From a virus (Duplodnaviria > Caudoviricetes), in IMG/VR virus record IMGVR_UViG_3300030376_007431, positions 21,625-85,624 of that record: a stretch of DNA of 64,000 bases; one strand, given 5' to 3'. How positions within the stretch are numbered: the stretch's first letter is position 1; every line of letters begins with the position of its first letter. This document shows, piece after piece, positions 2,813 through 58,654 of this stretch. Position numbers and translations under genes: made by a program. Under the pieces are notes generated by a model. That model was not told the DNA's origin and ran no database searches. It saw only the letters and a list, made by a program, of their open reading frames with translations.

Positions 2813-3928
2813 ATGGCTAACAGAATATTTTATGCGTGTCAGGGTGTCTTTGTAGATGGCTCTGAGTTGAAAAACGTGCAGAGCGTTGGTGTAAATTATT
2901 CTGCTGAAGCTGAAGGAGTGTCTGATCAAGGCAGACAACAACAGTTTAGAAGTCTTTACGCAAAGCCTGAAGTTGAGATAACTATAGAAAGAAATCTAAA
3001 TCATGGTTTCACTCCATTCTATGCCGCTACAACTCCTTCTACATATGTAGGCGGCTTTTTACTTGCCGATGGTAATTTGGGGATGTGCGGCTGGGACGGT
3101 AGCTCGAATTTAAAAGAATACAAAGTCGAGCTTGTGTATATGGACGATCAGAGCACAAGCACTAGGGTTGCTAATATCCAATACAAATATTGTTTAATTA
3201 CCAATATATCTTATTCTTTTCAGGTTGGCGGCCCAGCTACAGAGTCTATAACACTCAAAACAAATAATCTAATCAGAGAGGGAACCGCGACAGTTCCGGT
3301 TACTGGAGGTACTGACGGTGGCACAAATATAAAAAGACAAGCTTATATTAAACCGGAAGGCGCAGGTACTAATTCTACAGTTATTCCCACAGAGCTATCA
3401 AGTATAATCACTAAGGATACAGGTATTGGTAGCCATAACGGTCTTATTCAATCCATTGAGGCAAGCATGGATGTCTCTTATGAAGAGCTTTCAGATCAAG
3501 GAAACTGGAGAGGTGCTAATCAAACAACAAACCCCTCAGAGCAGAACAAATGGAAATATGTCACCGATGTGGATATAGAGACCTCAATAACTGCCAATTT
3601 GACAAAATCAATTCAACAAGATATTTTAATGAAAGACACAAACTTTATGGCTGCATTTCCAAAGCCAGATAGAGAGATTAAGCTGGCCTTTACCAATGGC
3701 GCCAGTAATTTCTTTGTATTAGATCTTGGTAAAAGAAACTATTTAACAAGCATAAGCTGGTCTGGAGGCGATACAGGAGGTGGCAACGTAACTGGTGCTT
3801 TTACATATAAGAATGATATGAAAGAATTTGTTCCATATGTCCACAGCGCTGTGTATAATATAGCGGCGCCAACAATAGCCGTCACTAACCCAGATGGCTC
3901 AGAAACAACATTTAATGTATATTATTAA
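2813..3928 (+). CDS. Putative virion structural protein, tail-tube-like, with two repeated domains
   Basis: Rich in beta-forming residues, Gly, Thr and Ser. Two related halves (VQSVGV..SDQG / IQSIEA..SDQG; ITNISYSF / LTSISWSG). Confidence 0.5.
   Translation: MANRIFYACQGVFVDGSELKNVQSVGVNYSAEAEGVSDQGRQQQFRSLYAKPEVEITIERNLNHGFTPFYAATTPSTYVGGFLLADGNLGMCGWDGSSNLKEYKVELVYMDDQSTSTRVANIQYKYCLITNISYSFQVGGPATESITLKTNNLIREGTATVPVTGGTDGGTNIKRQAYIKPEGAGTNSTVIPTELSSIITKDTGIGSHNGLIQSIEASMDVSYEELSDQGNWRGANQTTNPSEQNKWKYVTDVDIETSITANLTKSIQQDILMKDTNFMAAFPKPDREIKLAFTNGASNFFVLDLGKRNYLTSISWSGGDTGGGNVTGAFTYKNDMKEFVPYVHSAVYNIAAPTIAVTNPDGSETTFNVYY
3851..3862 (+). promoter_or_regulatory. Candidate promoter motif GTGTATAATATA upstream of DUF1501 gene 1
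   Basis: TG-TATAAT-like core about 80 nt before the AGGAG RBS and GTG start at 3943. A similar GTGTATTATAAT precedes the - strand gene at 50140. Confidence 0.3.
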
Positions 3929-3942
3929 TAAAGGAGAAAACC

Positions 3943-5196
3943 GTGTTAGACTTTATTTTTGATCGCAGGAACTTTTTAAGAGTAGGAAGTATTGGTGCTG
4001 GACTCAGTGCAGTAGGGTTATCTGACTATGCTTTGGCTCAGGAAACTCTGTCACACGAAGATAAAGCTGTTGTTTGGGTATGGCTTGGAGGAGGGCCAAC
4101 TCAATTTGAGACATTTCATGCTCCTAATGACACGGTTCCAACTGAATGGCAGCCAATCAATGGCGCGATTCATGATGCCAAAACTAATATTACGCTAGGA
4201 GCTGACTGGACTGAGTTAGCTAAACATACTAGCAAGATGAACGTAATCAATTCATTTAGCCATAGGGATTCTTCTCATCGCCAAGGTACTCACTTCATGA
4301 TGACTGGACACTATAATCCAGAGAGAACAACTACATCCATAACGAAGTACCCATCTTTTGGTTCTATAATCTCTGCCGTTTACGGGGCTAATCATCCTCA
4401 AAATGGAGTACCCACATATGTTAAACAAGGTAAAATCGAAGGTGATGAAGGTGCTTGGTTGGGCGGAGCATATAAACCTTTCGATCCATCCAATAAAGAC
4501 AACCTTACCCCAAGAGTTGAACTTAATAGATTCTCAACAAGAAAAGAATTGCTCAGAGGACTCGACGCCGCCAGAGTAGCTGGACAAAGCGCAGACTCTG
4601 TGGACTTTTATAAGGGTCAGGCATATGATGTAATTCTAGGCTCAGCCAAAGATGCTTTTTCTACAGATAAAGAAACAGAAGCAACAAAAAAACTATACGG
4701 ATCAGAGAAAGCCAACGATATCGGTGAACAATTAATGCTAGCTCGACGACTAGTAGAACATGGAACAAAATTTATAACTTTACATTACGGTGGCTGGGAT
4801 ATGCACTCTAATATTTCTAACGCTTTGAAAGGCAAGGTTCCACCTATTGACAAGGCTCTAGCTGGATTTATGCAAGATGTGTCTGATAAGGGTTTAAGTG
4901 ATAAAGTATTATTAGTGGTCACTGGTGAATTTGGCAGAACTAAGATCAACGCCAATGCTGGTCGTGACCATTGGCCATCAATCACACCAATGTTTATGTT
5001 TGGTGGGGATTACCAATCAGGCAGAACTATTGGAGAATCAGACAGATCATATAGTCCAATAGAGAACCCAGTTGGGCCATTGGATTTACAAGCAACACTA
5101 TTTAATCATTTCGGAATAGATAAAGGCATTCAGCGTGTAGATAACGGCGGAAGGCCTAGATATTTACTGGAAGGCGAAGCAAAGGTAATATTATAA
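3943..5196 (+). CDS. DUF1501 family protein 1 (alkaline-phosphatase/sulfatase-like fold) with Tat signal
   Basis: Tat motif DRRNFL, then WLGGGPTQFETF, SHRQG..MMTG, GGWDMH, GEFGRT and GRDHW. RBS AAGGAG precedes the GTG start. Confidence 0.9.
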   Translation: MLDFIFDRRNFLRVGSIGAGLSAVGLSDYALAQETLSHEDKAVVWVWLGGGPTQFETFHAPNDTVPTEWQPINGAIHDAKTNITLGADWTELAKHTSKMNVINSFSHRDSSHRQGTHFMMTGHYNPERTTTSITKYPSFGSIISAVYGANHPQNGVPTYVKQGKIEGDEGAWLGGAYKPFDPSNKDNLTPRVELNRFSTRKELLRGLDAARVAGQSADSVDFYKGQAYDVILGSAKDAFSTDKETEATKKLYGSEKANDIGEQLMLARRLVEHGTKFITLHYGGWDMHSNISNALKGKVPPIDKALAGFMQDVSDKGLSDKVLLVVTGEFGRTKINANAGRDHWPSITPMFMFGGDYQSGRTIGESDRSYSPIENPVGPLDLQATLFNHFGIDKGIQRVDNGGRPRYLLEGEAKVIL

Positions 5197-6107
5197 TGAA
5201 AAAAGAAAACTATGCAAGTGCATTTAATGAATATTTAAACGAAACAGGTTACACCGAAGAGCTTACAGAGGAGAATTTCTATGTGCCTGCGGAAGCGGAA
5301 TATGTAGACTTTGGTGAAGATACTGAAGACTGGGATATTGCAGAGGCAAAACCCGGACTTTGGGAAAATATCCGCAAGAAGAAGGAAAGAGAAGGTAAAA
5401 ATTATAGGCCTGCTCGCACTGAAAAAGAAGGTAGGCCGAGTCAAGAAGAATTAAAGAAAGCTAAGTCTGATAAGCCCTCCAAGGGCGATCCTCGAAGAAC
5501 TCCTGCCCCCAAGAAAGACCAGAAGAAAGGATCTAAAAAGAACAAGCCAGACAGCGCGAAGAACCCAAGCGGCAAGATTACTTTTAGCAAAGAGGTAACA
5601 AAGCAGTTATCAAATAAGGTTAAAGAACATAATGCTAAAGGCAAAGGTTCAAAGGCTAGTCTTGGGATGTTAAAAGCTGTATATAGAAGAGGTGCTGGCG
5701 CTTATTCTACAAGCCATGCACCAAAGATGAGTCGTCATGGTTGGGCTATTGCTAGAGTAAATGCTTTCCTGACATTGCTTAGAACTGGCAAGCCATCTAA
5801 TTCTGCATATAAGCAAGATAATGATCTATTGCCAAAAGGTCATCCTAGAAAATCTAAAGCGGCAGAATATCAAGGTAGAAAAGTCACTTTGAACAAACCA
5901 TTTAGAACTCCAGATGGGCCAAAGAAATTTGCGGTATATACTAAGAATGGATCTGGTAAGGTTGTCATTGTACGATTTGGCGATCCAAATATGGAGATCA
6001 AAAGAGATAATCCAAAAAGAAGAAAAAGTTTTAGAGCAAGACATAAATGTGATACAGCTCCGGGCCCAAAGTGGAAAGCTCGGTACTGGTCTTGCAGAAT
6101 GTGGTAA
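5196..6107 (+). CDS. Lys/Arg-rich mosaic phage protein made of short basic modules (putative DNA-binding or head-internal protein)
   Basis: Acidic N-terminus followed by modules GLWENIRKKK, TPAPKKDQKKGSKKN, LKAVYRRGAGAYSTSH..WAIARVNAFL and AEYQGRKVTLNKPFR..KARYWSCRMW, which I recognise from environmental phage proteins. Confidence 0.6.
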   Translation: MKKENYASAFNEYLNETGYTEELTEENFYVPAEAEYVDFGEDTEDWDIAEAKPGLWENIRKKKEREGKNYRPARTEKEGRPSQEELKKAKSDKPSKGDPRRTPAPKKDQKKGSKKNKPDSAKNPSGKITFSKEVTKQLSNKVKEHNAKGKGSKASLGMLKAVYRRGAGAYSTSHAPKMSRHGWAIARVNAFLTLLRTGKPSNSAYKQDNDLLPKGHPRKSKAAEYQGRKVTLNKPFRTPDGPKKFAVYTKNGSGKVVIVRFGDPNMEIKRDNPKRRKSFRARHKCDTAPGPKWKARYWSCRMW

Positions 6108-6117
6108 AGGAAATTTT

Positions 6118-7416
6118 ATGAATTGTAAAGGTAATCGCAGATCTTTTCTGCATGTTGGTTTTTTGGGTGGGCTAGGCTTAACTTTATCGGATTACTTCCG
6201 AATGGAGAAGCTTCAGGCTGACCAGAAATTTTATGAAAGTATTGAAGGCCCAGCAAAGTCTGTTATTTATATTTATTTGCCGGGAGGTTCAGCACATCAA
6301 GAGACATTTGATCCTAAACCTTTTGCTCCACTTGAGTACAGAGGGCCAATGTCTAGTATTGAAACAGTAGTTCCCGGAACTAGGCTTAACGAAATGATGG
6401 CTAAAACAGCCAAAGTCACAGACAAGATGACTATCATTCGCAGTATGACTCATGGAGAAGCAGCTCATGAACGAGGCACACATAATATGTTTACTGGTTA
6501 TAGACCTAGCCCAGCCCTTCAATACCCATCAATGGGTTCAGTGGTGGCGCACGAGTTTGGCCCTCGCCAAAACCTTCCTCCATATGTCTGTATCCCAAAC
6601 CAACCTAATGAATATGCAGGTACTGGATATTTAAGCAGCTCGTTTTCAGGCTTTAGTTTAGGCGCTGATCCAGCAAGTGATGGATTTCAGGTTCGAGATT
6701 TGAAACTACCTAACGGAGTCAATGATGGTAGATTTGGCAGTAGAAGAAAAATGCTTTCCGCAGTCAATGATTACTTTGCCACTAAAGAAAAGTCAGACTC
6801 TTTAGATGCTGTAGATAGTTTCTATGACAGAGCGTATAGTCTAATTAGCAGTGAAAAAGCTAGAGATGCTTTTGATATCAACAAAGAAAGCGATGCAATG
6901 CGAGATAAGTATGGTAGAAATACCGCTGGAGCCCGCATGCTTTTAGCTCGACGTTTAGTAGAAGCTGGAACACGTTTTGTCACGCTCACTTATGGTGGAT
7001 GGGACATGCACAATAATATAGAAAATGGTATTCGTGGACAAGTACCCGCACTAGATCAAGGGCTTGCGGCTCTTATTGAAGACCTTAGTGATAGAGGCAT
7101 GCTAGACTCAACATTAGTTTGCTTAGCTTCTGAATTCGGTCGCACGCCTAAGATTAATGCAACCGCTGGGCGTGACCACTGGCCAAAAGTGTTTAGTGTA
7201 GTTATGGCTGGAGGAGGAATACAAAGTGGAATGATTTACGGAAGCTCCAATGCTACAGCAAGTGAGCCAGAAGATAATCCAATGACAGTAGAAGACTGGG
7301 CAGCTACTATCTATAATAGAATTGGTATTGTTGCTGACAAAGAGCTTATGGCTCCCGGCGATAGACCTATAGAAATTGTAGACGGTGGCAAAGTTAGACA
7401 AGACTTAATTGTATAA
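6118..7416 (+). CDS. DUF1501 family protein 2 with Tat signal
   Basis: True start is most likely ATG 6118 (MNCKGNRRSFLHVG...), not 5914. Motifs YLPGGSAHQETFDPKP, AHERG..MFTG, GGWDMH, SEFGRTP and GRDHW. Confidence 0.92.
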   Translation: MNCKGNRRSFLHVGFLGGLGLTLSDYFRMEKLQADQKFYESIEGPAKSVIYIYLPGGSAHQETFDPKPFAPLEYRGPMSSIETVVPGTRLNEMMAKTAKVTDKMTIIRSMTHGEAAHERGTHNMFTGYRPSPALQYPSMGSVVAHEFGPRQNLPPYVCIPNQPNEYAGTGYLSSSFSGFSLGADPASDGFQVRDLKLPNGVNDGRFGSRRKMLSAVNDYFATKEKSDSLDAVDSFYDRAYSLISSEKARDAFDINKESDAMRDKYGRNTAGARMLLARRLVEAGTRFVTLTYGGWDMHNNIENGIRGQVPALDQGLAALIEDLSDRGMLDSTLVCLASEFGRTPKINATAGRDHWPKVFSVVMAGGGIQSGMIYGSSNATASEPEDNPMTVEDWAATIYNRIGIVADKELMAPGDRPIEIVDGGKVRQDLIV

Positions 7417-7426
7417 GGGAAACAAA

Positions 7427-7639
7427 ATGCCTTTACCTAAAAGAAATAAAGATGAGGATGCTAAAAACTTTGTTAATCGCTGCATGTCCAGTGATGTCAT
7501 GAAGGAAGAATATCCTAGTCAACAACAGCGAGTTGCTGTATGTATCAGTCAATCACGAGCCGCTTCTACAGTAGAGGGTTTAGCCGCTGCTAGTGAAGAG
7601 CTTATTTACGAAAATATTAAAAAGGAGACACAACAATGA
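7427..7639 (+). CDS. Small phage protein with an MPLPK..FVNRCMS..EYP..QRVAVC module
   Basis: ATG at 7427 after AAGGGA. The module resembles the N-termini of phage head-associated proteins (recalled, not verified). Confidence 0.55.
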   Translation: MPLPKRNKDEDAKNFVNRCMSSDVMKEEYPSQQQRVAVCISQSRAASTVEGLAAASEELIYENIKKETQQ

Positions 7640-7830
7640 AATTTAAAGTACCGCTGATAGCAATTATGATAGTTGCGGCAATATGTTTCATCAACAAAGA
7701 GGAGATAAAAAATATGTTTAGTGGCGATCAACCAGTTATTTGTGAAATATGTGAACCAGAATGTCCATGTCCAGAAGCAGGTTGCATTTGCGACGTTAAT
7801 ATATGCAAATGTGAAAAGTGCGTTAGTTAA
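7636..7830 (+). CDS. Small membrane-anchored or secreted Cys-rich, metallothionein-like protein
   Basis: N-terminal hydrophobic helix. Nine Cys in the last ~30 aa (CEICEPECPCPEAGCICDVNICKCEKC). RBS AAGGAG. Confidence 0.7.
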   Translation: MKFKVPLIAIMIVAAICFINKEEIKNMFSGDQPVICEICEPECPCPEAGCICDVNICKCEKCVS

Positions 7831-7915
7831 TTTCGATCTCGACCAAACGGCGAGAGCTAGCATCGAAATCAGTTTTGGGCGTTCGTTAAAAAGGAATTTA
7901 TCGGGCGCTCAAACT
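7830..7915 (+). ncRNA. Candidate two-hairpin structured RNA in an intergenic region
   Basis: ATTTCGAT..ATCGAAAT (7830-7869) followed by AGTTTTGGGCGTTCG..CGGGCGCTCAAACT (7871-7915), with G-U pairs that form only on the + strand. Confidence 0.45.
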
Positions 7916-7935
7916 TAACCAAAGGAGTTAATATA

Positions 7936-8373
7936 ATGAAATATTTAGTAACACTATTATGTTTATTGTTTGTGCCATTATCTGCAAACGCAGATCGACC
8001 AGAGCGTAAGGTAATCAAACCTCCCCAAGTTGTCAGAAGCCAACCCAGAGAGTTTACAAGACCTCCTGCGGCAAAACCCGTACAGAACAAACCTCTGCCA
8101 AAAGGATTCGGCGTACCGATTCAACGCCCACAAGGGTTTGGAAAACAGCAGTGGCAGAAACCACAGCCTCAACCTCAACAACCAAAAGTTCAGACTAAAC
8201 ATAGCTTTGGTTTTTATAATTACTATAGACCCGTGAACCCGCATTTTAGATATTATAGAGTTCCCTCTTATTATCCCCCTGTGATTATTCAGCCTCCTGT
8301 TGTTATTCAACCTCAGCCAATGCCGATTTATCCGGGCCCATTTCATGGTTTCTTTTTTCAATTTAGATTTTAA
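7936..8373 (+). CDS. Secreted Pro/Gln/Tyr-rich low-complexity protein
   Basis: Signal peptide MKYLVTLLCLLFVPLSANA, PQ/PV repeats and aromatic C-terminus GFFFQFRF. RBS AAGGAG. Confidence 0.7.
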   Translation: MKYLVTLLCLLFVPLSANADRPERKVIKPPQVVRSQPREFTRPPAAKPVQNKPLPKGFGVPIQRPQGFGKQQWQKPQPQPQQPKVQTKHSFGFYNYYRPVNPHFRYYRVPSYYPPVIIQPPVVIQPQPMPIYPGPFHGFFFQFRF

Positions 8374-8382
8374 GGTAATACT

Positions 8383-8955
8383 ATGACAACACAATACGCA
8401 AGACCTGATAGTGACATATCTGTTGACTCTTTTGGAGCGTATGGCTGGTTCGCAAGCACTGGCTCCGATCTGTATGCAATGATAGATGAAGAAGTTGCAG
8501 ACGATACCGACTATGCGAGATGCCGAGGAAGCAACGCTGAAAGTGGCTATAGATATTACAAGCTAGGTCTGAGCGACATTGACGAACCTAGTGACAAGTC
8601 TACTTTAAGTATTCGGGTAAGAGTTAGTAATGTAGATGACGCTGGGGATTTACGACTGTATCAAGGCTCTAGTCTGATTAAAAGGTTCAACGGTTCTGGC
8701 AATGGGTTTGGAACTGGCTCTAAAAGAAATCTTGACTTTGCAATTCCTGAAGCCGATGCAGAAAATATAACAGACTATACGGATTTGAATCTTTGGATTG
8801 GTATAGATAATGATTCGTATGGTACTGCTTACATCTATCAGGTGTACTTGGAAGCCGGTAGTGCCAGTGGTGGCTCAACTAGAAAGCAAAATTTGTCTAT
8901 TATATCTCCCTCTATGGGTATTCAGGGTTTAGGAAATGGTTTTACTTTAGCATAA
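8383..8955 (+). CDS. Hypothetical beta-sandwich protein, possibly virion-associated
   Basis: 190-aa ORF in operon context with beta-strand-like composition and no catalytic motif. Confidence 0.45.
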   Translation: MTTQYARPDSDISVDSFGAYGWFASTGSDLYAMIDEEVADDTDYARCRGSNAESGYRYYKLGLSDIDEPSDKSTLSIRVRVSNVDDAGDLRLYQGSSLIKRFNGSGNGFGTGSKRNLDFAIPEADAENITDYTDLNLWIGIDNDSYGTAYIYQVYLEAGSASGGSTRKQNLSIISPSMGIQGLGNGFTLA

Positions 8956-8968
8956 GGACACACGTAAT

Positions 8969-10183
8969 ATGAAGAGACGCAACTTTTTAGCTTCTGTAGC
9001 GAGCGTAATGTCGCTAGCAGAAACTGTCAAAGCGAATCAAGAAGAGTTGAAAAAAAATGGTAAATCCGCTATCCTGTTATGGATGGGCGGCGGCCCTTCA
9101 ACGATGGACATCTGGGACTTAAAATCCGGCGCTCCAACAGGAGGCCCTTTCAGGCCTATAGCTACTAGCGGAGATGTTCAGATTAGTGAGCATATGCCTT
9201 TAATGGCTAAACAAATGCATAACGCCGCCATTATTAGAAGTATGAGTACTCGTGAAGCTGACCATATGCGTGGTCGTTATTATATGCACACCGGCTACGT
9301 TCCTAATCCATCTATTGACCACCCAAGCTATGGGTCTGTCCTATCCCATCAACTCCGACGAAAAGATTTGTCGATCCCCCAATTCATCTCAGTGGGAGGA
9401 GGAAGTATGGGCGCAGGTTTTCTGGGAGCTAAATACAATCCGTTCATGGTAAATAGTGATGGTAGAATTAGAAATCTAGATATGAAAGTAGATGAAAGAT
9501 TTTATCAAAGAGCTTACGCTTTAGATGCAATTGAAAATAACTTTATAAACCAGAGAAGAGGATCATTAGCAAAAGAACATCAGGCGATCCTTAAAGAGAC
9601 ATTTAATGTTCTAACGAGCGCCCAAATGGATGCGCTTAAAGTAGCTGGTGAACCTGACAATATAAAAGAAAGATACGGAGACAATAACTTTGGTAAGGGG
9701 TGCTTGATGGCACGGCGTTTAGTCGAAGCAGGAGTACCATTTATTGAAGTTAATCTAGGTGGCTGGGATAATCACCAGAACATTTTCCCTACATTAAGAG
9801 ATACGAAACTGCCCATGTTAGATCAAGGCATGAGCGCGCTGTATGAAGATTTAGAGCAGCGTGGGTTATTACAAGACACAGCGATTATTTGGATGGGTGA
9901 GTTCAGTAGGACTCCTCGTATCAACGGTAATGCTGGTCGTGACCACTGGGCACGAAGCTGGAGTGTTGTCGTTGGCGGAGCCGGAATGAATGGCGGTATC
10001 GCTATTGGCGAAACAAACTCAGATGGTACTCGTGTGGAAACCGAACCATATACATCTCAGGATGTCATGGCTTCCGTTTGCAAAGCGCTTGGTATTTCTT
10101 TGGGTACTACGTTTACTAGCAACAGTGGTAGACCTATGAAAATCGCTAACTCTGGTAAGGTCATAACCGAACTGTTTGGTTAA
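8969..10183 (+). CDS. DUF1501 family protein 3 with Tat signal
   Basis: MKRRNFL Tat motif, WMGGGPSTMDIWD, DHMRG..MHTG, GGWDNH, GEFSRTP and GRDHW. Confidence 0.92.
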   Translation: MKRRNFLASVASVMSLAETVKANQEELKKNGKSAILLWMGGGPSTMDIWDLKSGAPTGGPFRPIATSGDVQISEHMPLMAKQMHNAAIIRSMSTREADHMRGRYYMHTGYVPNPSIDHPSYGSVLSHQLRRKDLSIPQFISVGGGSMGAGFLGAKYNPFMVNSDGRIRNLDMKVDERFYQRAYALDAIENNFINQRRGSLAKEHQAILKETFNVLTSAQMDALKVAGEPDNIKERYGDNNFGKGCLMARRLVEAGVPFIEVNLGGWDNHQNIFPTLRDTKLPMLDQGMSALYEDLEQRGLLQDTAIIWMGEFSRTPRINGNAGRDHWARSWSVVVGGAGMNGGIAIGETNSDGTRVETEPYTSQDVMASVCKALGISLGTTFTSNSGRPMKIANSGKVITELFG

Positions 10184-10484
10184 TCTTATGAAATTTTTTA
10201 GAAACGCAGTTTATGTGCTATTTTCTTTATCTTTACTGAATTTAGCGGGCTCTTTCTATATGTATAGACATATAATGAATAGGAGCAATATAATAGAGGT
10301 TAAAATTCCTATGTCGGAAGACCTCAAGGATCTACCTTTGCATACAAGACTCAGAGATTCACAGATTATGCAAGCGATCCTTATGACTCATCACCAACTC
10401 GGTATACATGAGCCCGGCTCTCAGCCGATGTGTCCAATGTGTCAAGATTCAGAAATTAAAACTATAACAGTAGAGAATAATTAA
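10176..10484 (+). CDS. Membrane-anchored protein with a His/Cys metal-binding motif
   Basis: N-terminal TM helix and C-terminal THHQLGIH..MCPMC. Confidence 0.55.
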   Translation: MVNLMKFFRNAVYVLFSLSLLNLAGSFYMYRHIMNRSNIIEVKIPMSEDLKDLPLHTRLRDSQIMQAILMTHHQLGIHEPGSQPMCPMCQDSEIKTITVENN

Positions 10485-11182
10485 TGGCAAGACAACCAAA
10501 GAAGAAGCCCGCAACTAGACAACGCCGTAAAATACTTCGACCAAAGACTAGAAATCAAGAAGACTATATGGGTCACATTCATAAGTCTGACGTGACATTC
10601 TGTTCAGGGCCAGCAGGCTCAGGAAAGACCAGCGTATCTGTAGGAATGGCCTGTGAATACTTGATCGAGAAAAAGGTAGATAAAATCATTATCACTAGAC
10701 CTGTCGTAGAATCCGGTAGAGGTTTAGGCCACCTTCCGGGAACACTAGTTGAAAAAATAAATCCGTATCTAATACCTATACTAGAAGAGATGAATCACTA
10801 TCTCACTAGAAATACCGTTGAGACTTACAGAAATAGAAATATTATTGAGTTATGTCCTTTGGAATATATGCGAGGTAGAAACTTTCATAATTGCTTTATG
10901 ATACTTGACGAGGCTCAGAATGCCACATTTGAGCAGATTAAAATGTTTATTACTAGAATTGGCAAGGATTCTAAAGCTGTAATAAATGGAGACTTAAGAC
11001 AGTCCGATCTAGGTAAACAACAAGGAGGTTTGCATACCTGTATGGAAAAATTAGTTGAGGTCTCCGGTGTAGGAGTCTGCGAACTTGACTATAGCGATAT
11101 TGTGCGAAGCGATATTGTCTCCAAGATTCTTATAAGACTAAACAAGAAAGAAGATGACGATGAACCAGTTAAATATTTTTAG
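10484..11182 (+). CDS. phoH: PhoH family ATPase
   Basis: SGPAGSGKT, ITRPVVE, GHLPG, YMRGRNF, ILDEAQN and GDLRQSD. Confidence 0.96.
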   Translation: MARQPKKKPATRQRRKILRPKTRNQEDYMGHIHKSDVTFCSGPAGSGKTSVSVGMACEYLIEKKVDKIIITRPVVESGRGLGHLPGTLVEKINPYLIPILEEMNHYLTRNTVETYRNRNIIELCPLEYMRGRNFHNCFMILDEAQNATFEQIKMFITRIGKDSKAVINGDLRQSDLGKQQGGLHTCMEKLVEVSGVGVCELDYSDIVRSDIVSKILIRLNKKEDDDEPVKYF

Positions 11183-11477
11183 AGGTGTATTCTTAGCAGC
11201 TATAGTAGTTATAGGGGTTAGATCCGAATATAATAATCAACAACTCAATCGAAGACTCGGCATCTTAGAAGAGGGTATTTTCTACAATCAGGCAGTGCAA
11301 AACGACACGTCTATGAAACTTGAAACATTCTTACAGGCCCTCTCTGATGAGCTACCTATAGAGGTTGAAGCTTACGCTACTGAGACCGCAAAGAAAGTAG
11401 CCAGAGAAACAACTATAAGTACATTGCAACAATTCTCTGAAAATTTGAAAAAAATAGATGTCAAACTCGATAAGTGA
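11154..11477 (+). CDS. Hypothetical membrane-anchored coiled-coil protein
   Basis: N-terminal hydrophobic segment followed by a helical, coiled-coil-like region. Confidence 0.55.
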   Translation: MTMNQLNIFRGVFLAAIVVIGVRSEYNNQQLNRRLGILEEGIFYNQAVQNDTSMKLETFLQALSDELPIEVEAYATETAKKVARETTISTLQQFSENLKKIDVKLDK

Positions 11478-11506
11478 TCCTATAATATCATAGACTATTT
11501 ATAGGA
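11478..11506 (+). promoter_or_regulatory. Inverted repeat TCCTATAA..TTATAGGA containing a TATAAT box and overlapping the RBS of the FmdB-like gene
   Basis: 8-bp arms at 11478-11485 and 11499-11506. TATAAT at 11481-11486. AGGAG RBS at 11503-11507. Confidence 0.45.
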
Positions 11507-11513
11507 GTTACAT

Positions 11514-11852
11514 ATGCCAACTTACGATTATGAATGTAGCCAATGCAGCTACTACGAAGAAGTGTTCCAGAAGTTTTCTGAAAAGCCTCTCGTAAGATGT
11601 CCTCAGTGTAAAAAGCATAAATTCAGAAGAGTTATTCTAAGTGCACCTCACATTTCAGTGAAGGGTGAGCCAGCTACAATACAGCACTTAGCAGATAGAA
11701 ATACCCAGAAAATGGGAAGATATGAGCTAGAATCTAAGATGCAGCAAGACAACATGGAGAAGGTCAAGAAAGACCGTGAGACTAATGTCTTGAGGAACAA
11801 AATTAATAAAATGACGCCAGCTCAGAAGAAAAAATATATAGAGAAAGGTTAA
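11514..11852 (+). CDS. FmdB family zinc-ribbon protein
   Basis: MPTYDYECSQC..CPQCK..RRVIL is the typical FmdB CxxC-CxxC pattern. Confidence 0.88.
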   Translation: MPTYDYECSQCSYYEEVFQKFSEKPLVRCPQCKKHKFRRVILSAPHISVKGEPATIQHLADRNTQKMGRYELESKMQQDNMEKVKKDRETNVLRNKINKMTPAQKKKYIEKG

Positions 11853-23447: not shown

Positions 23448-25019
23448 ATGAATTGGGTTCCATTAAATGTGAAGACGCATTTTAGTCTTCAGAGAGGATT
23501 CTCTAAACCTGACAAGCTAGCTAAAAAGTGCAAAGAATTTGGGTACACAGCTTGTGCTATTACAGACATTAATACTATTTCTGGAGCTGTTACATTCTAC
23601 AAAGAGTGCAAAAAGAATGGCATAAAACCTATAATTGGTTGCACTTTAGAGTTTGATAACGGCAAGAAGAAGACTCTCATTTCTAAGAACAAAAAAGGGT
23701 GGTATGCGTTAATTGACTTGGTGTCAAAAAAGAATATGTATGAAGACGATGTGGTATATAAACTTATACAGTCTTCGCTTGACGAGAATCTAATATGCGT
23801 TGATGGACTTAAGCAATATTCTACATACTATGTTGAGCCTTCCGAAGCGGAGGTACACAGAATATTATTGTGTTCAGGCATGAAGACAACAATGTCTAAA
23901 GCCAAATCCAAACTAGACTCGTTCAAACATCTAAAACCGTTCTTTTCCTCAGACGGTTTTTATTTGCCAAACATGCAAGAAGTTGAAGAAAAATATACAA
24001 GTGAGCAGATTGTTCTTAGTGTAGAGATAGCGGATCAATGTGAAGAGTATAACATCTTAGGCGCTCCAATGTTGCCAGAATTTGACTGTCCCGATGATTA
24101 CACAGAAGACGAATATCTAAAGCAGTTATGTAGGGACGGCTGGCGTAAATTGCTTACTGAGACTGGTAAGATTGACGACGAAACTAGAAAGCAACAGTAT
24201 CTCGACAGAATCAAAAATGAGATGGATGTTATATTTGAAGCTAAGCTTTCTGGATACTTTCTGATTGTTCAGGATATTGTCAACCATGTAAGGTCTCAGA
24301 ATTGGCTTCCGGGCCCCGGAAGAGGCTCCGCTGCAGGATGTCTGATTTCTTATCTGATTGGTATTACTGAAATTGACCCGATTGAGTATGATTTAATTTT
24401 TGAGCGGTTCTACAACGCTGGACGTAATACCGAAGATCACGTATCGCTCCCTGATATTGACTTAGACGTACCTGCAGAAAACAGGGATGAGGTAATAACA
24501 TACATCAAATCAAAGTATGGGCAAGACAACGTATCACAAATGATTACATTTAATAAGCTGCAGGGTAGAGCTGCACTTAAAGAAATCATGCGTATAAACA
24601 GCACTGTCTCTTTCGGAGAGATGAACGATGTAACCAAAAACATTCCTAATGAAGCCGATGTTTCTGACCTGATTGAGCAAAGCGGAGAGAAATCCTTGAT
24701 AAAGTGGACACTAAAATATCAGCCTGAAGTTTTGGATAGATGGTGTAAGTTGAACAGCGAAGACGATCTTGTGGGTCCTTTGTCGTTGGTTTTTGAGCAG
24801 GCTATGGACATAGAGGGAACGATCAAGTCGCAGGGTAAACACGCGGCTGGAGTAATCATATCATCGAATAAACTAACTCAAGTTTGCCCGATGGTGCAAG
24901 ATAAAAACAACAACCTTGTTGCTGGTTTTGAAATGGGAGACCTTGAAGAACAGGGACATGTTAAATTTGATATATTGGGCATTGACCTACTTAGTAAAAT
25001 AATGGAGATAAAAGAATAA
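23448..25019 (+). CDS. dnaE: DNA polymerase III alpha, N-terminal part (degenerate PHP + palm)
   Basis: AITD, GPGRGSAAG, LIFERFYN, SLPDIDLD, GKHAAGV and VKFDILG, then a stop codon. Confidence 0.93.
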   Translation: MNWVPLNVKTHFSLQRGFSKPDKLAKKCKEFGYTACAITDINTISGAVTFYKECKKNGIKPIIGCTLEFDNGKKKTLISKNKKGWYALIDLVSKKNMYEDDVVYKLIQSSLDENLICVDGLKQYSTYYVEPSEAEVHRILLCSGMKTTMSKAKSKLDSFKHLKPFFSSDGFYLPNMQEVEEKYTSEQIVLSVEIADQCEEYNILGAPMLPEFDCPDDYTEDEYLKQLCRDGWRKLLTETGKIDDETRKQQYLDRIKNEMDVIFEAKLSGYFLIVQDIVNHVRSQNWLPGPGRGSAAGCLISYLIGITEIDPIEYDLIFERFYNAGRNTEDHVSLPDIDLDVPAENRDEVITYIKSKYGQDNVSQMITFNKLQGRAALKEIMRINSTVSFGEMNDVTKNIPNEADVSDLIEQSGEKSLIKWTLKYQPEVLDRWCKLNSEDDLVGPLSLVFEQAMDIEGTIKSQGKHAAGVIISSNKLTQVCPMVQDKNNNLVAGFEMGDLEEQGHVKFDILGIDLLSKIMEIKE

Positions 25020-25234
25020 TGGATGTTACAGCTGACTATAAGTCTGTCCTGTTTTCAGGATGCGCTATTGAATACAAAGATATTAGCCTATGCAATTTAG
25101 GCTCATATTTACCTTCAAGACTTGGTATGTCTCGAACATATCAGGTTCACTCAAAGAAACATAAGTTCAGTAAAATATACAAAAATGTTGATGATGCTGT
25201 CTGCATGTTTCTAGAACTAAAGAGGAGATCTTAA
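25019..25234 (+). CDS. Hypothetical protein between the dnaE halves
   Basis: TAATG-coupled 71-aa ORF. Confidence 0.6.
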   Translation: MDVTADYKSVLFSGCAIEYKDISLCNLGSYLPSRLGMSRTYQVHSKKHKFSKIYKNVDDAVCMFLELKRRS

Positions 25235-25923
25235 TGAATTACAGAGATATAATTGTTTTTGACTTTGAAACCGGATCTAGAAATCCACACAAGACACAGC
25301 CAACGCAAATCGCAGCTATCGCCCTTCATGGTCGTAAGCTGACGGTTCAACCCGGAGGAGTCTTTAACAGCGAAATCCGCCCCATTCTAGATGACAAAAA
25401 AGCGATTGAGGCAGGCTTTGATCCTATAGAAGACGAAGCTCTTGACATCACAGGCAAGACACGTAAAGCATTAGCCAAGGCGCCCCTACCTAAAACGGTA
25501 TGGCAGAAGTTTGAAGACTTTTGTAATAAGTTTAATTTTAGAGGCACATCTTATACTGCTCCTATTGCTGCCGGTTACAATATCATTGGTTTTGACCTGC
25601 CAATCGTTCAGCGTATGTGTGACATGCACGGGACTACTGACTCAAGAGGTCGCCAAACTGTGTTCAATCCGATCTTTAAGTTAGACTTGATGGATATGGT
25701 ATTCTCTTGGACTGAGAACAATAAGGACTTCAAGAGCCTCAGCATGGACTTTCTAAGAGACTATATGGGCTTCCCTGAAGAAAGCAAGGAGAACGCTCAC
25801 GACGCGCTACAGGACGTTAAAGACACAGCTAATATACTTATTAAGTTTTTAAAGTTCCAGAGAAACATTTCGGAAAAAACCAAATTTGAGAAAGCATTTG
25901 CAAATGGCGAATTCTACGTTTAA
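25234..25923 (+). CDS. DEDDh 3'-5' exonuclease (DnaQ/epsilon-like proofreader)
   Basis: ExoI VFDFETG, ExoII AGYN..FD and ExoIII AHDALQD. Confidence 0.88.
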   Translation: MNYRDIIVFDFETGSRNPHKTQPTQIAAIALHGRKLTVQPGGVFNSEIRPILDDKKAIEAGFDPIEDEALDITGKTRKALAKAPLPKTVWQKFEDFCNKFNFRGTSYTAPIAAGYNIIGFDLPIVQRMCDMHGTTDSRGRQTVFNPIFKLDLMDMVFSWTENNKDFKSLSMDFLRDYMGFPEESKENAHDALQDVKDTANILIKFLKFQRNISEKTKFEKAFANGEFYV

Positions 25924-27466
25924 TATTGATGACTATAATGACTCTGGTGTTTGGGATTTAATTTGTGAGGGACAAACAAAAGGTGTCTTTCAGTTAGAGT
26001 CACAGCTTGGCAGATCGTGGGCTAAAAGGGTGCGTCCTCGCAACATTGAAGAATTAGCAGCGTTAATATCTTTGATTAGGCCCGGATGTCTGAAGGCTTT
26101 TACCGAAGGTAAATCAATGACACAGCATTATGTTGACCGTAAAGCTGGTATTGATGAAGTCAAATATTTACATGAAAGTCTTAAGCCAATCCTTGAAGAG
26201 ACTTATGGGGTTCTTGTGTATCAAGAGCAATCCATGAAGATTGCACAGCAGCTTGCGGGATTTGATTTAAAGGAAGCGGATAGTCTTCGTAAGGCCATCG
26301 GTAAGAAAAAGGCAGACTTAATGAACCAGATCAAAGGGTCTTTCCTTGAGGGGGCCGTTTCTGTTGGAGGATTAGAAAAAGAAACTGCGGAAGAAATCTT
26401 TAGCTGGATCGAAAAGTCAAATAGATATGCGTTTAACAAGTCTCACGCTGTATCTTATGCTGTTAACGCCTACAGGAGCGCATACTGCAAACATTACAGA
26501 AAGGTAAAGTTTTTTGAGGTTTATCTAAATCACTCTGAAAGAAAACCAGATAGTCAACTAGAAATTAAAGAGCTGGTTTCTGATTCTAAGATGTACGATA
26601 TAGAAAATTTGCCACCCAGACTGGGCCATTTTTATGAAGATTTTACAGCCAAAGACAACACAATATATTTTGGGATTACTAGCGTTAAGGGCGTTGGTGG
26701 GTCAGAGGCAAATAAAATGCTGTCGCTTATACCTGATCTTGAGGAAAGGTTAGACAAGCAGTTTTCAGAGTTTACATGGGCTGATACGTTATTCAATTTT
26801 GGCCTCAAGATAAATAAGACATGTATGGAGTCTCTTATAAATGTTGGAGCCTTTAATGGTTCAAACAATAGAAAGCACCGAAATGCAATGCTTTATGAAT
26901 ACAAGAGCTATAGAAATCTTTCTTCTAGGGAAAGAGAATGGCTGTCGGAAAACTATCTAGACACAGCATCTTTGGTTCAAAACATTGATAATATGATAAA
27001 CAATCTAAAAATAAACTCAAATAGACTAATCAAGGTATTTGATGTTCGTAATGTTGTTGAGTCTCCTCCTTTTGATATATCCGATCATCCAGACTGGATA
27101 GCTGATACAGAAAAAAAGTATATGGGTACATCTCTAACATTTTCAAAAACCGATTCTATCCAAAGCTCAATAGTTGACTCTACATGTAAAGAAATATTAA
27201 CAGGTAAAACGGGTAAGGTAACGCTTGTCCTGCATGTGAACTCTCTTAGGGAATACACAACTAAGAATGGGAAAAATCCGGGACAGATCATGGCGTTCCT
27301 ATCAGTAGAAGATAGCACAGCTACGCTAGACTCGGCTATAGTATTCCCAGATGCGTATGAAGAATTCAAGGGTATATTGTACGAAGGTAATACTGTAATA
27401 GCATTCGGACAAGTTTCTAAGAAAAAAGATACAAGTTTGATCATTAACAAAGTGTCTCAAGCATAA
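25904..27466 (+). CDS. dnaE: DNA polymerase III alpha, C-terminal part (fingers, HhH, OB)
   Basis: GVFQLES, LIRPG, ETYGVLVYQEQ, LRKAIGKKK, YAFNKSHAVSY and OB-fold MAFLSVED..VFP. Likely start is ATG 25904. Confidence 0.93.
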   Translation: MANSTFNIDDYNDSGVWDLICEGQTKGVFQLESQLGRSWAKRVRPRNIEELAALISLIRPGCLKAFTEGKSMTQHYVDRKAGIDEVKYLHESLKPILEETYGVLVYQEQSMKIAQQLAGFDLKEADSLRKAIGKKKADLMNQIKGSFLEGAVSVGGLEKETAEEIFSWIEKSNRYAFNKSHAVSYAVNAYRSAYCKHYRKVKFFEVYLNHSERKPDSQLEIKELVSDSKMYDIENLPPRLGHFYEDFTAKDNTIYFGITSVKGVGGSEANKMLSLIPDLEERLDKQFSEFTWADTLFNFGLKINKTCMESLINVGAFNGSNNRKHRNAMLYEYKSYRNLSSREREWLSENYLDTASLVQNIDNMINNLKINSNRLIKVFDVRNVVESPPFDISDHPDWIADTEKKYMGTSLTFSKTDSIQSSIVDSTCKEILTGKTGKVTLVLHVNSLREYTTKNGKNPGQIMAFLSVEDSTATLDSAIVFPDAYEEFKGILYEGNTVIAFGQVSKKKDTSLIINKVSQA

Positions 27467-28303: not shown

Positions 28304-29971
28304 ATGAGAAGAAAAAAAATACTAATCTGCACCGAAGCCCACTGGCTACCCACCGGCTACTCCGTGTATACCAAAGAAGTTTTAGGTAGACTTAGCAGAA
28401 ACCCTAATTTTGAAATAGCTGAGTTAGCCTGCTATGTCACACAAGAAGAGGCTGATGGCCAAAACGTACCTTGGAAAATTATAGCTAATCAACCACTAAA
28501 AAATGGTCCGGAGTGGGAAGTATATAAATCAAGTCCTTCTAGTGAATTCGGGGAGTTCAAGTTTAACGAAACTTTGATTGACTTTATGCCAGATTTTGTT
28601 ATGGATATAAGAGACTGGTGGATGTTGGAGTTCGTTGGTCGTACGCTTTTCCGAGATTTCTTTCAATGGGCAATAATGCCGGCTGTTGACGCTCGCCCTC
28701 AAAACAAACAATGGGTAGATACGTACTCATCCGCAGATGCAGTATTTGCATATTCTGAGTTTGGTAGGGATGTATTGCTAGGGCAGTCGGATGGAATGAA
28801 TTTTATAGATGTCGCATCACCTTGCGCAAGTCCTGTTTTTCATCCACCGGAAAGCAAAAGTGAACACAAGAAGCTTGGAGGTATAGATCCAGATTCTTTC
28901 GTTATAGGTACGGTAATGAGAAACCAAAGGAGAAAGCTCTACCCAGACTTATTTGAAGTATTCGCAAACTTCTTAGATGCAACCAAAGCAAACAACGCCT
29001 ACTTATATTGCCACACCGCTTATCCAGATTTAGGCTGGGAAATACCGCAACTTCTTCATGAATACGGTATCGGAGACAGGGTATTATTTACATACAGATG
29101 TAAAAAATGTGGCACAATTACTCCAAAGCTATTCAGTGACGTAATATCTCACTGTTCTCACTGCGGAAGTTACGAATCTCAGATGATTGGAATAAATAAC
29201 AAAGCAACTGAAGAGGATCTAGCGGAAGTCTATAGGCTATTCGATGTCTATATTCAGTATGCTAATAGCGAAGGTTTTGGGATGCCTCAACTAGAGGCGA
29301 CCAGTACTGGATTACCCTTGATAACGGTTGATTATTCAGCAATGGAGTCGGTGGGAAATAAGATTGGTGCATTCAAAGTTCCTGTCATGAAACTACACAC
29401 CGAGTGTGAAACTGGATGCTTACGAGCTATACCAGACAATGATGCAGCAATGTTGTATCTCATGAAACTTTATTCGCTTGGGAATGAGGCTGTGGTTGAT
29501 TCCGGCGAAAGAATGAGACAGGCAACGTTAGAAAACTATAGCTGGGATACGACGGCACAGAAGTGGGGTGACTATTTTGACAGAACTCCCGTGCTTGACC
29601 TGAAGAAAACATGGCTTTCTCCGCCAAGAATGTTTAACCCAGCTAAGGAAATACCTGCGAATTTAACAACAATCAAAGATCAAGTTGACTTTTTGTTTGC
29701 TAATGTTCTTGGGCGCCCAGAGTGGATAGGAAATTATTTTTGGAAGAGAACAGTTAGAGACCTCACATACAAGAGTACAATGGCCAGCACTGCTGTTGAC
29801 TTTCATTTTAGTGAATCTCATACTGGCTCTCATGATGTAAGAGCTTGGAGTCGCTTTACTTTGCAAGATGCACATGAGAGTTTTATTAAGGCGGCAGAAG
29901 TAAACAATCAATGGGAACGCTATCGCCTAGAAAAAGTTGAAGCTATAATGTCTGGAGGAGTCAGCAGATAA
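28304..29971 (+). CDS. GT4 family glycosyltransferase with an inserted zinc ribbon
   Basis: TGYSVY, VMRNQRRK, YANSEGFGMPQLEA. CKKC..CSHC insertion. Confidence 0.88.
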   Translation: MRRKKILICTEAHWLPTGYSVYTKEVLGRLSRNPNFEIAELACYVTQEEADGQNVPWKIIANQPLKNGPEWEVYKSSPSSEFGEFKFNETLIDFMPDFVMDIRDWWMLEFVGRTLFRDFFQWAIMPAVDARPQNKQWVDTYSSADAVFAYSEFGRDVLLGQSDGMNFIDVASPCASPVFHPPESKSEHKKLGGIDPDSFVIGTVMRNQRRKLYPDLFEVFANFLDATKANNAYLYCHTAYPDLGWEIPQLLHEYGIGDRVLFTYRCKKCGTITPKLFSDVISHCSHCGSYESQMIGINNKATEEDLAEVYRLFDVYIQYANSEGFGMPQLEATSTGLPLITVDYSAMESVGNKIGAFKVPVMKLHTECETGCLRAIPDNDAAMLYLMKLYSLGNEAVVDSGERMRQATLENYSWDTTAQKWGDYFDRTPVLDLKKTWLSPPRMFNPAKEIPANLTTIKDQVDFLFANVLGRPEWIGNYFWKRTVRDLTYKSTMASTAVDFHFSESHTGSHDVRAWSRFTLQDAHESFIKAAEVNNQWERYRLEKVEAIMSGGVSR

Positions 29972-31083
29972 TGAAGGTATTATATATAGGAAATTACAAT
30001 GACCAGACCGGCTGGGGTGATGCAGCATTAAATAATATATTAGCCCTAGATTCCGCAGGCGTAGATGTTGTACCTAGATCTATTTCTTTTAATAATTCTC
30101 ATATTGCGAATGAACTAAGAATCAAACAGCTAGAACTTAATAGCACAAAAGGGTGCGATATATGTATTCAGCATACACTACCTAACCTTTATTCTTATCA
30201 TGAGGGTTTAAAAAATATAGGCGTATTCTATACCGAAACTCTAACTTTCACTGAGAGTATGTGGCACAAACATATAAACCTATTAGATGAAGTGTGGGTA
30301 GCTAATAGCCAAATGGCGGAGGCGTGTCAAAAAAGTTTGGTCAACATTCCAGTGAGTATTGCTCCACTATCTTTAGATATCGCAGATTACGGAGATAGAT
30401 ATAAAGATTGCGCGACTATGGATAACATCGAGTCCACATTTAATTTTTGCTTTGTTGGAGAGATGATACACAGAAAAAACATTGAAGGCTTGCTCAGAGC
30501 ATTCCATACAGAGTTTCACCCGTCTGAACCTGTTAATCTCTTCCTAAAAGTAACAAAGTCAGGATACAATTCACAAGACACACTATCTTATTTTGAAGCA
30601 ATGGCGGCCAACGTAAAAAGAAACTTAAAGATAAGAGACAATTATAAAGAGGAAGTAGTTGTTTCCGGACATTTAGAAAAAAGACACCTAAAGTCGCTTA
30701 TGGCAAAATGCAACTGTTTTGTTATGCCTAGTTTTGGAGAAGCTTGGTGCATACCTGCCTTAGAAGCCATGGCTTTGGCTATGCCTGTCATATACACTAA
30801 GGGGACTGGCATGGATGATTTTTGTTACGGTTGGAGCGTTGACTCTAGACCTTCACCATGCTATGGAGCTACTGACTCTCTTGGTGGCCTCTACACATCA
30901 AAGACTAAATGGGTAGAGCCTGATATTGAGTCGCTAGCTTCGTGCATGAGGGTCGCATTTGAGACGTATAAAAATTCACCTCAGAAATATAGCGAGATGC
31001 AGCAGAACGCAAGAAGCCGCGCTGTGAAATACGACCGCCTATCTATAGGTAGAAAATTAAAGGAGTTACTGCAAAATGGCTAA
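29971..31083 (+). CDS. GT4 family glycosyltransferase
   Basis: RKNIEGLLRAF and PSFGEAWCIPALEAMA. Confidence 0.9.
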   Translation: MKVLYIGNYNDQTGWGDAALNNILALDSAGVDVVPRSISFNNSHIANELRIKQLELNSTKGCDICIQHTLPNLYSYHEGLKNIGVFYTETLTFTESMWHKHINLLDEVWVANSQMAEACQKSLVNIPVSIAPLSLDIADYGDRYKDCATMDNIESTFNFCFVGEMIHRKNIEGLLRAFHTEFHPSEPVNLFLKVTKSGYNSQDTLSYFEAMAANVKRNLKIRDNYKEEVVVSGHLEKRHLKSLMAKCNCFVMPSFGEAWCIPALEAMALAMPVIYTKGTGMDDFCYGWSVDSRPSPCYGATDSLGGLYTSKTKWVEPDIESLASCMRVAFETYKNSPQKYSEMQQNARSRAVKYDRLSIGRKLKELLQNG

Positions 31084-32107: not shown

Positions 32108-32109
32108 TA

Positions 32110-32532
32110 ATGAGAATCATACTATCCAACACAGAGCCAAGTTTAAAAAACTATACTTGGATTAAAGACATTTCTTCTTTAGATGAAGTTGTTGATGACG
32201 CTGAAGCCACTGAGATTATAGTTGATAATTTTTTATCTTCTTTTAACTTCTCATTTGCTGGTGAGGCTCTCAAGAAAATACTATCTAAACTAAGAACTAG
32301 AGGGACTATTACAGTTTACGTTAAAGATATTTCTTTAATCTGCCATAATGTGGCGTCAGTTGCTTTAGATATATCTGATATAAACACACTATTCTTTGAG
32401 GATAGTCAGGCTATAGCTTCTGTTCTTAATTTGTCTAATGTAGACGATATTCTAACTCAGTGTGGATTAACAGTTAAAGAAAAACATCTAAATATTGAAA
32501 CATGCCAAGGCATTATTGTAGCAGCGAGGTAA
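32110..32532 (+). CDS. Degenerate methyltransferase-fold protein
   Basis: EIIVDNFL..LKKILSKLRTRGTITVYVKD resembles the C-terminal half of type-11 MTases, but the GxG SAM motif is missing. Confidence 0.4.
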   Translation: MRIILSNTEPSLKNYTWIKDISSLDEVVDDAEATEIIVDNFLSSFNFSFAGEALKKILSKLRTRGTITVYVKDISLICHNVASVALDISDINTLFFEDSQAIASVLNLSNVDDILTQCGLTVKEKHLNIETCQGIIVAAR

Positions 32533-32536
32533 AACT

Positions 32537-38552: not shown

Positions 38553-38558
38553 ATTAAA

Positions 38559-39377: not shown

Positions 39378-39381
39378 CTAT

Positions 39382-46072: not shown

Positions 46073-46073
46073 A

Positions 46074-55173: not shown

Positions 55174-55174
55174 T

Positions 55175-58642: not shown

Positions 58643-58654
58643 ATCATTCTCCTA

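Follow-up and report, generated by a model that had tools for sequence, protein, structure and literature searches.

The window analysed here is a 64,000-bp stretch of viral DNA, bases 21625–85624 of the 85,624-bp IMG/VR virus record IMGVR_UViG_3300030376_007431 (Caudoviricetes; CheckV completeness about 55%). Between nrdA and nrdB on one side and phoH on the other, it carries a cassette with three genes of the DUF1501 family (Pfam PF07394), all on the plus strand: D1 (window positions 3943–5196, 417 amino acids, GTG start codon), D2 (6118–7416, 432 amino acids), and D3 (8969–10183, 404 amino acids). The start of D2 was set at the ATG at 6118, not at the mechanically assigned start at 5914, because this choice gives the N-terminus typical of the family and no overlap with the preceding gene. 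All three reading frames are open and full length, covering positions 2–386 (D1), 1–389 (D2), and 2–390 (D3) of the 390-position Pfam profile with E-values of 2.3e-65, 2.5e-114, and 1.1e-101 and scores of 221.7, 382.9, and 341.2 bits, respectively (gathering score 27 bits). The three proteins are 31–39% identical to each other. A first-pass annotation, made from the sequence alone, had described three full-length, divergent DUF1501 genes with twin-arginine signals and conserved motifs, followed by phoH, and the profile searches and motif inspection bear this description out.

A twin-arginine motif of the form RR-x-F-L is found at residues 3–9 of each protein (DRRNFL in D1, NRRSFL in D2, KRRNFL in D3), followed by a mildly hydrophobic stretch rich in Gly, Ser, and Ala, with a mean hydropathy of 1.4–2.0 in a 12-residue window. 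The motif is retained in 135 of the 138 full-length viral homologs, and R7 and R8 are conserved at 96–98% family-wide. The motif and this family-wide pattern suggest that D1–D3 are exported by the twin-arginine translocation (Tat) pathway; searches of NCBIfam, including its Tat-signal models, gave no useful match for any cassette protein.

The GG(P/S), H..G, WDxH, EF(G/S)RT, and GRDHW motifs are present in D1–D3. Residue conservation was judged against 127 diverse homologs, using columns conserved at at least 85% and the numbering of D2. The family-conserved set comprises an acidic residue at position 62, D65/K67, R108, H117, W295-D296-x-H298, D313, D322, E339-F-G-R342-T, and G351-R-D-H354. 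D2 and D3 retain all of these residues, with Ser replacing Gly in the EFGRT block of D3, whose other departures lie outside the set. D2, D3, and a fourth paralog found in related phages, D4, match nearly all of the columns conserved at this threshold, and the few departures are minor. D1 carries the substitutions D65H, K67N, and R108N, at positions that are variable across the whole D1 clade, and retains the WDxH, EFGRT, and GRDHW blocks. Across viral contigs, where synonymous divergence was not saturated, the ratio of nonsynonymous to synonymous substitution rates (dN/dS) was 0.02–0.11 for D1, D2, D3, and D4, and 0.04–0.07 for D1. The low dN/dS and the conserved residues together indicate that the cassette DUF1501 genes are functional. 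Contigs from oligo-dT marine RNA sequencing libraries match parts of D1, of the adjacent gene X1, and of D2 at 90–99% identity, and one such contig of 1.9 kb spans D2; DNA carry-over is possible. The shares of the RNA libraries were small and consisted of contigs only, and a part of the cassette without cover proves nothing.

Scans of IMG/VR returned 54 loci with D2 as the query and 249 stretches with an alignment of the D1 clade. Dozens of viral contigs share the gene order nrdA, nrdB, X0, D1, X1, D2, (D4), X2, D3, X4, phoH, in this or a permuted arrangement. For D3, the Tara, JGI, ENA, and Logan assemblies contained more than 120 distinct variants with at least 83% identity, in contigs of up to 172 kb; this word-based search yielded viral orthologs only and is uninformative on cellular relatives, for which whole-genome searches of candidate hosts were used instead. 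D4 encodes 427 amino acids, is about 35% identical to D2, and lies between D2 and X2, for example at 10499–11782 of locus L004; other carriers are L005, L006, L011–L013, L018, L021, L023, L026, L028, L030, L036, L037, and L052. X2 comes directly after D4 in L004, L005, L011, and others, usually starting right at the D4 stop codon. D4 is missing from this window, as it is from L007–L010, and no remnant of it was found in the 520-bp gap at 7417–7935.

Long relatives of the record carry the same family in similar numbers, with three to four DUF1501 copies each in G001, G002, G003, and G005. G003 (166,833 bp, 100% complete by CheckV estimate) has three copies, and G001 (144,965 bp, 94% complete) has four. 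The large terminase of G003 matches phrog_2 (E = 6.7e-23), and this genome also has virion-structural and tail-fibre-like matches in PHROGs. No match to the PF17289 terminase profile was found in the close relatives; the terminase of G004 has no homolog there. In the record itself, Pfam and PHROGs matches identify nrdAB, phoH, a UvsX-like recombinase, DnaB helicase, and a polymerase split in two.

The view that DUF1501 genes are undescribed in phages is supported by several searches. PHROGs v4 contained no family matching D1, D2, or D3, and the only match among 50,697 deposited phage records was partial, in one 6.9-kb uncultured fragment at 31–35% identity. The top viral structural match, in BFVD (E = 5e-10), was UniProt A0A6J5M742, whose name, 'DUF1501 domain-containing protein [uncultured Caudovirales phage]', was assigned automatically and which resembles the present case as a DUF1501 protein on an uncultured tailed phage. 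None of the papers found to mention DUF1501 describes a phage-borne member; one phage paper reports a weak CDD match in a 61-amino-acid reading frame.

To place D2 among cellular genes, one genome per prokaryote species was scanned with a D2-ortholog query and the best 80 loci were kept. These match over the full length at 68–86% identity and are nearly all titled Planctomycetota, with Pirellulaceae, Planctomycetaceae, Fuerstiella, and Mariniblastus among the names; three have another or no phylum name. In all 80 loci the host D2 gene stands without D1, D3, nrd, or phoH nearby. Downstream of it lie genes for a PPC-domain protein of ~840 amino acids (80/80), a Big_2/PSCyt2/PSD1 protein of ~840 amino acids (69/80), and a PSCyt1 protein (57/80), the latter two being present wherever the locus reaches far enough. 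A four-gene module of this kind, consisting of DUF1501, PPC-domain, PSCyt1/Big_2/PSCyt2/PSD1, and PSCyt1/WD40 genes, was described in Planctomycetes, Verrucomicrobia, and Lentisphaerae (Kamneva et al. 2012, PMC3542564). D2 is evidently a phage copy of the DUF1501 gene of this conserved planctomycete operon. A D2 operon of Pirellulales/Planctomycetales type, at 71–76% identity, was also seen in metagenome-assembled genomes (MAGs) titled 'Candidatus Kuenenia' or 'Chitinophaga' (L072, L077, L079, L084, L091, L100, L102, L108, and L127); these titles look unreliable. On the D2 tree, a clade with 100% support in the Shimodaira–Hasegawa-like approximate likelihood ratio test (SH-aLRT) unites 19 viral copies with genes from five marine MAGs (L060–L064). 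A quick tree had placed L040/L048 apart from the main viral clade, implying at least two independent captures; this claim was withdrawn, because the approximately unbiased (AU) test does not reject one viral clade (p = 0.64; the constrained tree was even better).

The five MAGs providing these host genes were taken as candidate host genomes; they are 2.4–4.5 Mb in size and contain 65–157 DUF1501 genes each. Four of the five have a single D3 ortholog with 77–79% identity, the next best match being at ~40%, and the viral and host D3 sequences form a clade with 99% SH-aLRT support. In G006, where the genomic context was read, the ortholog lies directly behind a gene for a 580-amino-acid PSCyt2/PSD1 protein, and D3 is accordingly placed, by sequence, as a phage copy of the host DUF1501 gene from a two-gene PSCyt2/PSD1 module. 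At L246:9593–12262 of G006, a D3-type pair is followed by an extracytoplasmic function (ECF)-type sigma factor and a second PSCyt2/PSD1-like protein; the sigma factor hints at regulation of the module by envelope signals. The best host match of D4, at 59% identity, adjoins a PSCyt1/PSCyt2/NPCBM/PSD1 gene, and D4 is probably a host capture too.

The best matches of D1 in the five candidate host genomes reach 38–41% identity. Its nearest representatives among clusters at 50% identity, P0131, P0198, and P0248 (42–64%), all lie in phage-like contigs of several kinds, and D1 represents an older phage-borne DUF1501 lineage. Two D1-like genes, 64% identical to D1 and ~23 kb apart, occur on the 103-kb contig IMGVR_UViG_3300025264_002028 (L217 and L222).

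The first-pass annotation had proposed a phylogeny to distinguish independent captures from duplication within the phage. On a tree of 94 sequences, D1, D2, D3, and D4 fall into four separate, well-supported groups, and a single all-viral clade is rejected (log-likelihood cost 1706, AU p = 1.4e-7). The paralogs thus belong to separate DUF1501 subfamilies and are not in-phage duplicates, and D2 and D3 were captured from different host modules. The guanine-plus-cytosine (GC) content of the cassette DUF1501 genes is 41–44%, that of the phage is 40%, and that of the host genes is 50–52%; phage and host copies are saturated at synonymous sites.

Homologs of the PSD1, PSCyt2, PPC-type, and PSCyt1 partners were sought by tblastn, with Pfam models, and with a hidden Markov model built from 60 host partners, which recovered the positive controls. 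None turned up in the record, the related loci of the clade, or the complete relative G003, so that the lack of a partner noticed at first in the window extends to the whole record and its near-complete relatives. Therefore, the phage carries subunits of modules, not modules. Two other IMG/VR contigs, L055 (3300021964_010058) and L056 (3300025890_003315), contain DUF1501 together with PSCyt2/PSD1-like genes and represent cellular fragments or phages carrying the pair.

A physical link between the phage proteins and the host partners was examined by co-folding residues 40–432 of phage D2 (131-row alignment) with the PSCyt2/PSD1 region 345–842 of the partner from the L060 MAG (60-row alignment). 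The interface score ipSAE was 0.88 in each of three runs, and the best of three controls scored 0.00. A value of 0.88 is attained by 58 of 80 solved complexes versus 2 of 110 mismatched pairs, a calibration that is rough here since custom alignments were used. The runs had at least 96% of contacts in common, and the predicted local distance difference test (pLDDT) score of the partner was at least 92. In the predicted interface, the helical insert of the DUF1501 protein (about residues 154–243 of D2) packs against the conserved C-terminus of PSD1 (671–842). At the core of the interface are R205, R209, L212/L213, and A239, all conserved family-wide; D1, D3, and D4 have the same residues or conservative swaps there, with M212 in D2 and A212 and T239 in D3. 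Peripheral interface residues differ among the paralogs, which would be in keeping with a separate cognate partner for each subunit. Altogether, the model supports binding of phage D2 to the host PSD1 domain.

An AlphaFold2 model was obtained for D2 only (pLDDT 93.6, predicted template modelling score 0.90). Its best matches among PDB structures in a Foldseek search were S1 sulfatases, LtaS-type enzymes (LtaP), phosphonate monoester hydrolase, and YejM, with E-values of 2e-6 to 1e-4. D2 shares with S1 sulfatases, LtaS/PEtN-transferase-type enzymes, and phosphonate monoester hydrolases the same core fold, with conserved motifs rich in Asp and His at strand ends, but differs in the low template modelling (TM) scores of 0.3–0.43, in the lack of a formylglycine motif, and in the lack of sequence-level membership of DUF1501 in these families. 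No sequence-level relative was found among PDB structures (best E-value 0.058); a weak profile match to alkaline-phosphatase-superfamily enzymes covers the region after the WDxH motif. The formylglycine motif C/S-x-P/A-x-R is not at the expected place in D1–D4 and is absent altogether from D1, D3, and D4; D2 has a single chance match at residue 258, within the helical insert. Because of the missing motif and the PDB E-value, the DUF1501 proteins were not filed as sulfatases. The modelled fold identifies DUF1501 as a distinct branch of the alkaline-phosphatase superfamily, in which a Ser/Thr or water nucleophile may act together with a His/Asp metal site.

The remaining genes of the cassette are likewise all on the plus strand. 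Upstream, nrdA (3–1670; phrog_84, E = 2.3e-161) and nrdB (1791–2798; PF00268, E = 2.5e-79) form the flank of the cassette in this subclade. X0 (2813–3928, 371 amino acids) has no signal peptide and only a marginal match to phrog_238 (E = 5.5e-4), and it is variable, with identities of 32–49% or 93% in relatives. X1 (5196–6107, 303 amino acids) is very basic, has no signal peptide, matches DUF5824 (E = 1.5e-7) and phrog_7595 (E = 4.4e-14), and adjoins D1 or D2 in most relatives; it probably stands outside the enzyme system. X2 (7936–8373, 145 amino acids) has a Sec-type signal, a hydrophobic N-terminus ending in SANA, followed by a low-complexity body rich in Pro, Gln, and Tyr; it has no family match in Pfam, PHROGs, or NCBIfam and is a predicted second type of exported cassette product. 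X3 (8383–8955, 190 amino acids), also without a match in Pfam, PHROGs, or NCBIfam, is little conserved among relatives, with a partial match in L006 only. X4 (10176–10484, 102 amino acids) overlaps the stop codon of D3, reaches up to the start codon of phoH, and is retained after D3 in most relatives; it has one N-terminal membrane helix, a CPMC motif, and no match in Pfam or NCBIfam, and could be a membrane anchor or redox helper for D3. The phoH gene (10484–11182; PF02562, E = 6.8e-69) is closely packed with D3 and X4. Four other reading frames were counted between the DUF1501 genes: X1, X2, and two without a match. The statement that the DUF1501 genes are interleaved with phage-type reading frames is thus weak, as X1 alone matches viral families and the others have no such match.

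Plus-strand genes are densely packed as far as ~49 kb of the window. The split replicative polymerase (23448–27466) consists of two reading frames of 523 and 526 amino acids with other genes in between; in the relative L140, Pfam assigns the pieces to PHP/DNA_pol3_alpha and DNA_pol3_finger, and an RNase T-type exonuclease separates them. Large glycan-building islands at 28304–47232 of the window and at L058:7535–16168 contain many GT1/GT4-type glycosyltransferases, NAD-dependent epimerase/dehydratase, PAP2 phosphatase, and an 841-amino-acid radical-SAM/SPASM protein. The minus strand at 50956–62944 carries three very large reading frames (1424, 1155, and 1429 amino acids) with no Pfam or PHROGs match, and the GC skew reverses at ~50 kb, the point where the coding strand switches. 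The clade, present in Tara, JGI, and ENA assemblies, consists of widespread marine tailed phages of roughly 145–167 kb that, judged by gene similarity, most likely infect Planctomycetota (Pirellulales/Planctomycetales).

We propose that the cassette encodes auxiliary DUF1501 catalytic subunits that would be exported by the host Tat system and dock on host PSCyt/PSD1 partners, sustaining the modules during infection; we put the probability of this explanation at roughly 0.55. Each cassette gene would derive from a separate periplasmic module of the host, of which the phage took the DUF1501 component and not the large PSCyt/PSD1 partner, and would encode a metal-dependent enzyme of the alkaline-phosphatase/sulfatase superfamily. 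The proteins would be made in the cytoplasm during infection and exported folded via host Tat, and their helical insert would then dock on the C-terminal PSD1 domain of partners already in the host envelope, maintaining or raising module activity while the phage replicates. The position of the genes between nrdAB and phoH, together with the chemistry of the superfamily, suggests ester hydrolysis for nutrient supply: the reaction would likely be hydrolysis of phosphate or sulfate esters on a partner-held substrate, and the payoff likely a supply of nutrients, probably phosphorus. Export in the host, the benefit to the phage, and the substrate are what we infer; the contact between DUF1501 and PSD1 is a prediction. 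The broader idea, that such phages collect exchangeable catalytic subunits of several host DUF1501–PSD1 systems and insert them via Tat into envelope partners, we hold tentatively, at slightly less than even odds.

Several known systems are comparable. D2 and D3 are orthologs of DUF1501 genes from the four-gene and two-gene forms of the modules of Kamneva et al. 2012 (PMC3542564), and have the twin-arginine N-terminus and conserved residues in common with them; the phage differs in having the DUF1501 gene only, with the partners left behind, and in combining three to four subunits of different modules in one cassette. Among other phages, the DUF1501 genes can be compared with auxiliary genes contributing a single component to a host system. 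Cyanophage psbA, encoding the D1 protein of photosystem II, and the P-stress genes pstS, phoA, and phoH are examples. Like these, the cassette genes are apparently host-derived, under purifying selection, located next to phoH and nucleotide-metabolism genes, and encode one component that would need host partners, whereas the predicted Tat-type export to the periplasm, the several paralogs from different modules, and the Planctomycetota hosts set them apart. Phage auxiliary genes supplying partner-less subunits of an orphan host system would be the new element here.

Some points weigh against the proposed function. DUF1501 and PSD1 proteins have no known function, and the sustained function cannot be linked to a pathway. 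The docking result is a model confidence obtained with custom alignments, not a measurement; the structural likeness of the D2 model to solved enzymes is distant; the hosts were assigned solely by gene similarity; and the RNA-library contigs over parts of D1 and D2 are no proof of transcription. Moreover, D1 may do something else, because it has no close host ortholog and three of its family-conserved residues are changed.

Among other explanations, the DUF1501 proteins could be free-standing periplasmic hydrolases that remodel envelope glycans or lipids without a PSD1 partner, for example to block superinfection, aid lysis, or process a sulfated and fucosylated glycan that the phage glycosyltransferase island might produce. 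This would suit a phage that encodes no partner and has large glycan-building islands, the occurrence of the D1 lineage in several phage types without a host ortholog, and the small exported proteins X2 and X4 that accompany D4 and D3. However, D2 and D3 still share 77–86% identity with host subunits that are always encoded beside a partner, all four paralogs conserve the residues predicted to touch PSD1, and the co-fold passes its controls; we regard free-standing action as rather unlikely. The predicted docking would also suit a competitive takeover, with phage subunits displacing host DUF1501 proteins from the PSD1 scaffolds in a dominant-negative manner or with altered specificity. The peripheral interface residues that vary between paralogs and the altered conserved residues of D1 would be in line with this, but essentially all family-conserved residues are retained in D2, D3, and D4, whose dN/dS is 0.02–0.1, and a mere blocker is disfavoured because it would not need these residues. 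Takeover therefore seems improbable to us, and interference with host DUF1501–PSD1 complexes, one of the roles suggested in the first-pass annotation, is conceivable but fits less well than functional docking, because the family-conserved residues are under strong purifying selection. The other roles suggested there, envelope or glycan remodelling and phosphorus or sulfur scavenging, are conjectural.

The close similarity of D2 and D3 to planctomycete genes, and the contigs L055 and L056, which may be cellular, could also point to an artefact, either host DNA that entered a viral contig by misassembly or misbinning or a contig that is itself cellular. We give this a negligible chance. Many samples yielded the same cassette with its flanks, in dozens of independent assemblies, near-complete genomes with terminase and structural genes are available, and the synonymous sites between phage and host are saturated. 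The GC content of the cassette is near that of the phage and well under that of the host, and the window, with 38–43% GC, shows no shift in composition near 3.9 or 10.2 kb, where a misassembled chimera had been envisaged. The cassette is genuinely phage-borne: its synteny across dozens of viral contigs, the same genes in complete relatives, and its phage-like GC content exclude a host/phage chimera.

If the broader idea of collected subunits inserted via Tat into envelope partners is correct, the cassette would represent a new class of auxiliary genes and the first evidence of a physical DUF1501–PSD1 enzyme–scaffold complex. It would also mean that the phage picks, from the 65–157 modules per host genome, the few that matter most in infection. 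In Planctomycetota and Verrucomicrobiota, few orphan gene families are as large as DUF1501 with its PSCyt/PSD1 partners, and to our knowledge no function has been found for the module since its description in 2012. In this respect, the phage offers a test system of small single genes rather than ~100 paralogs, to which the co-fold adds a concrete, mutable interface. We also know of very few planctomycete phages, and the cassette links large marine phages of an abundant, uncultured clade to probable planctomycete hosts. By keeping three or four subunits under strong selection, these phages provide a short list of modules that may be important during infection.

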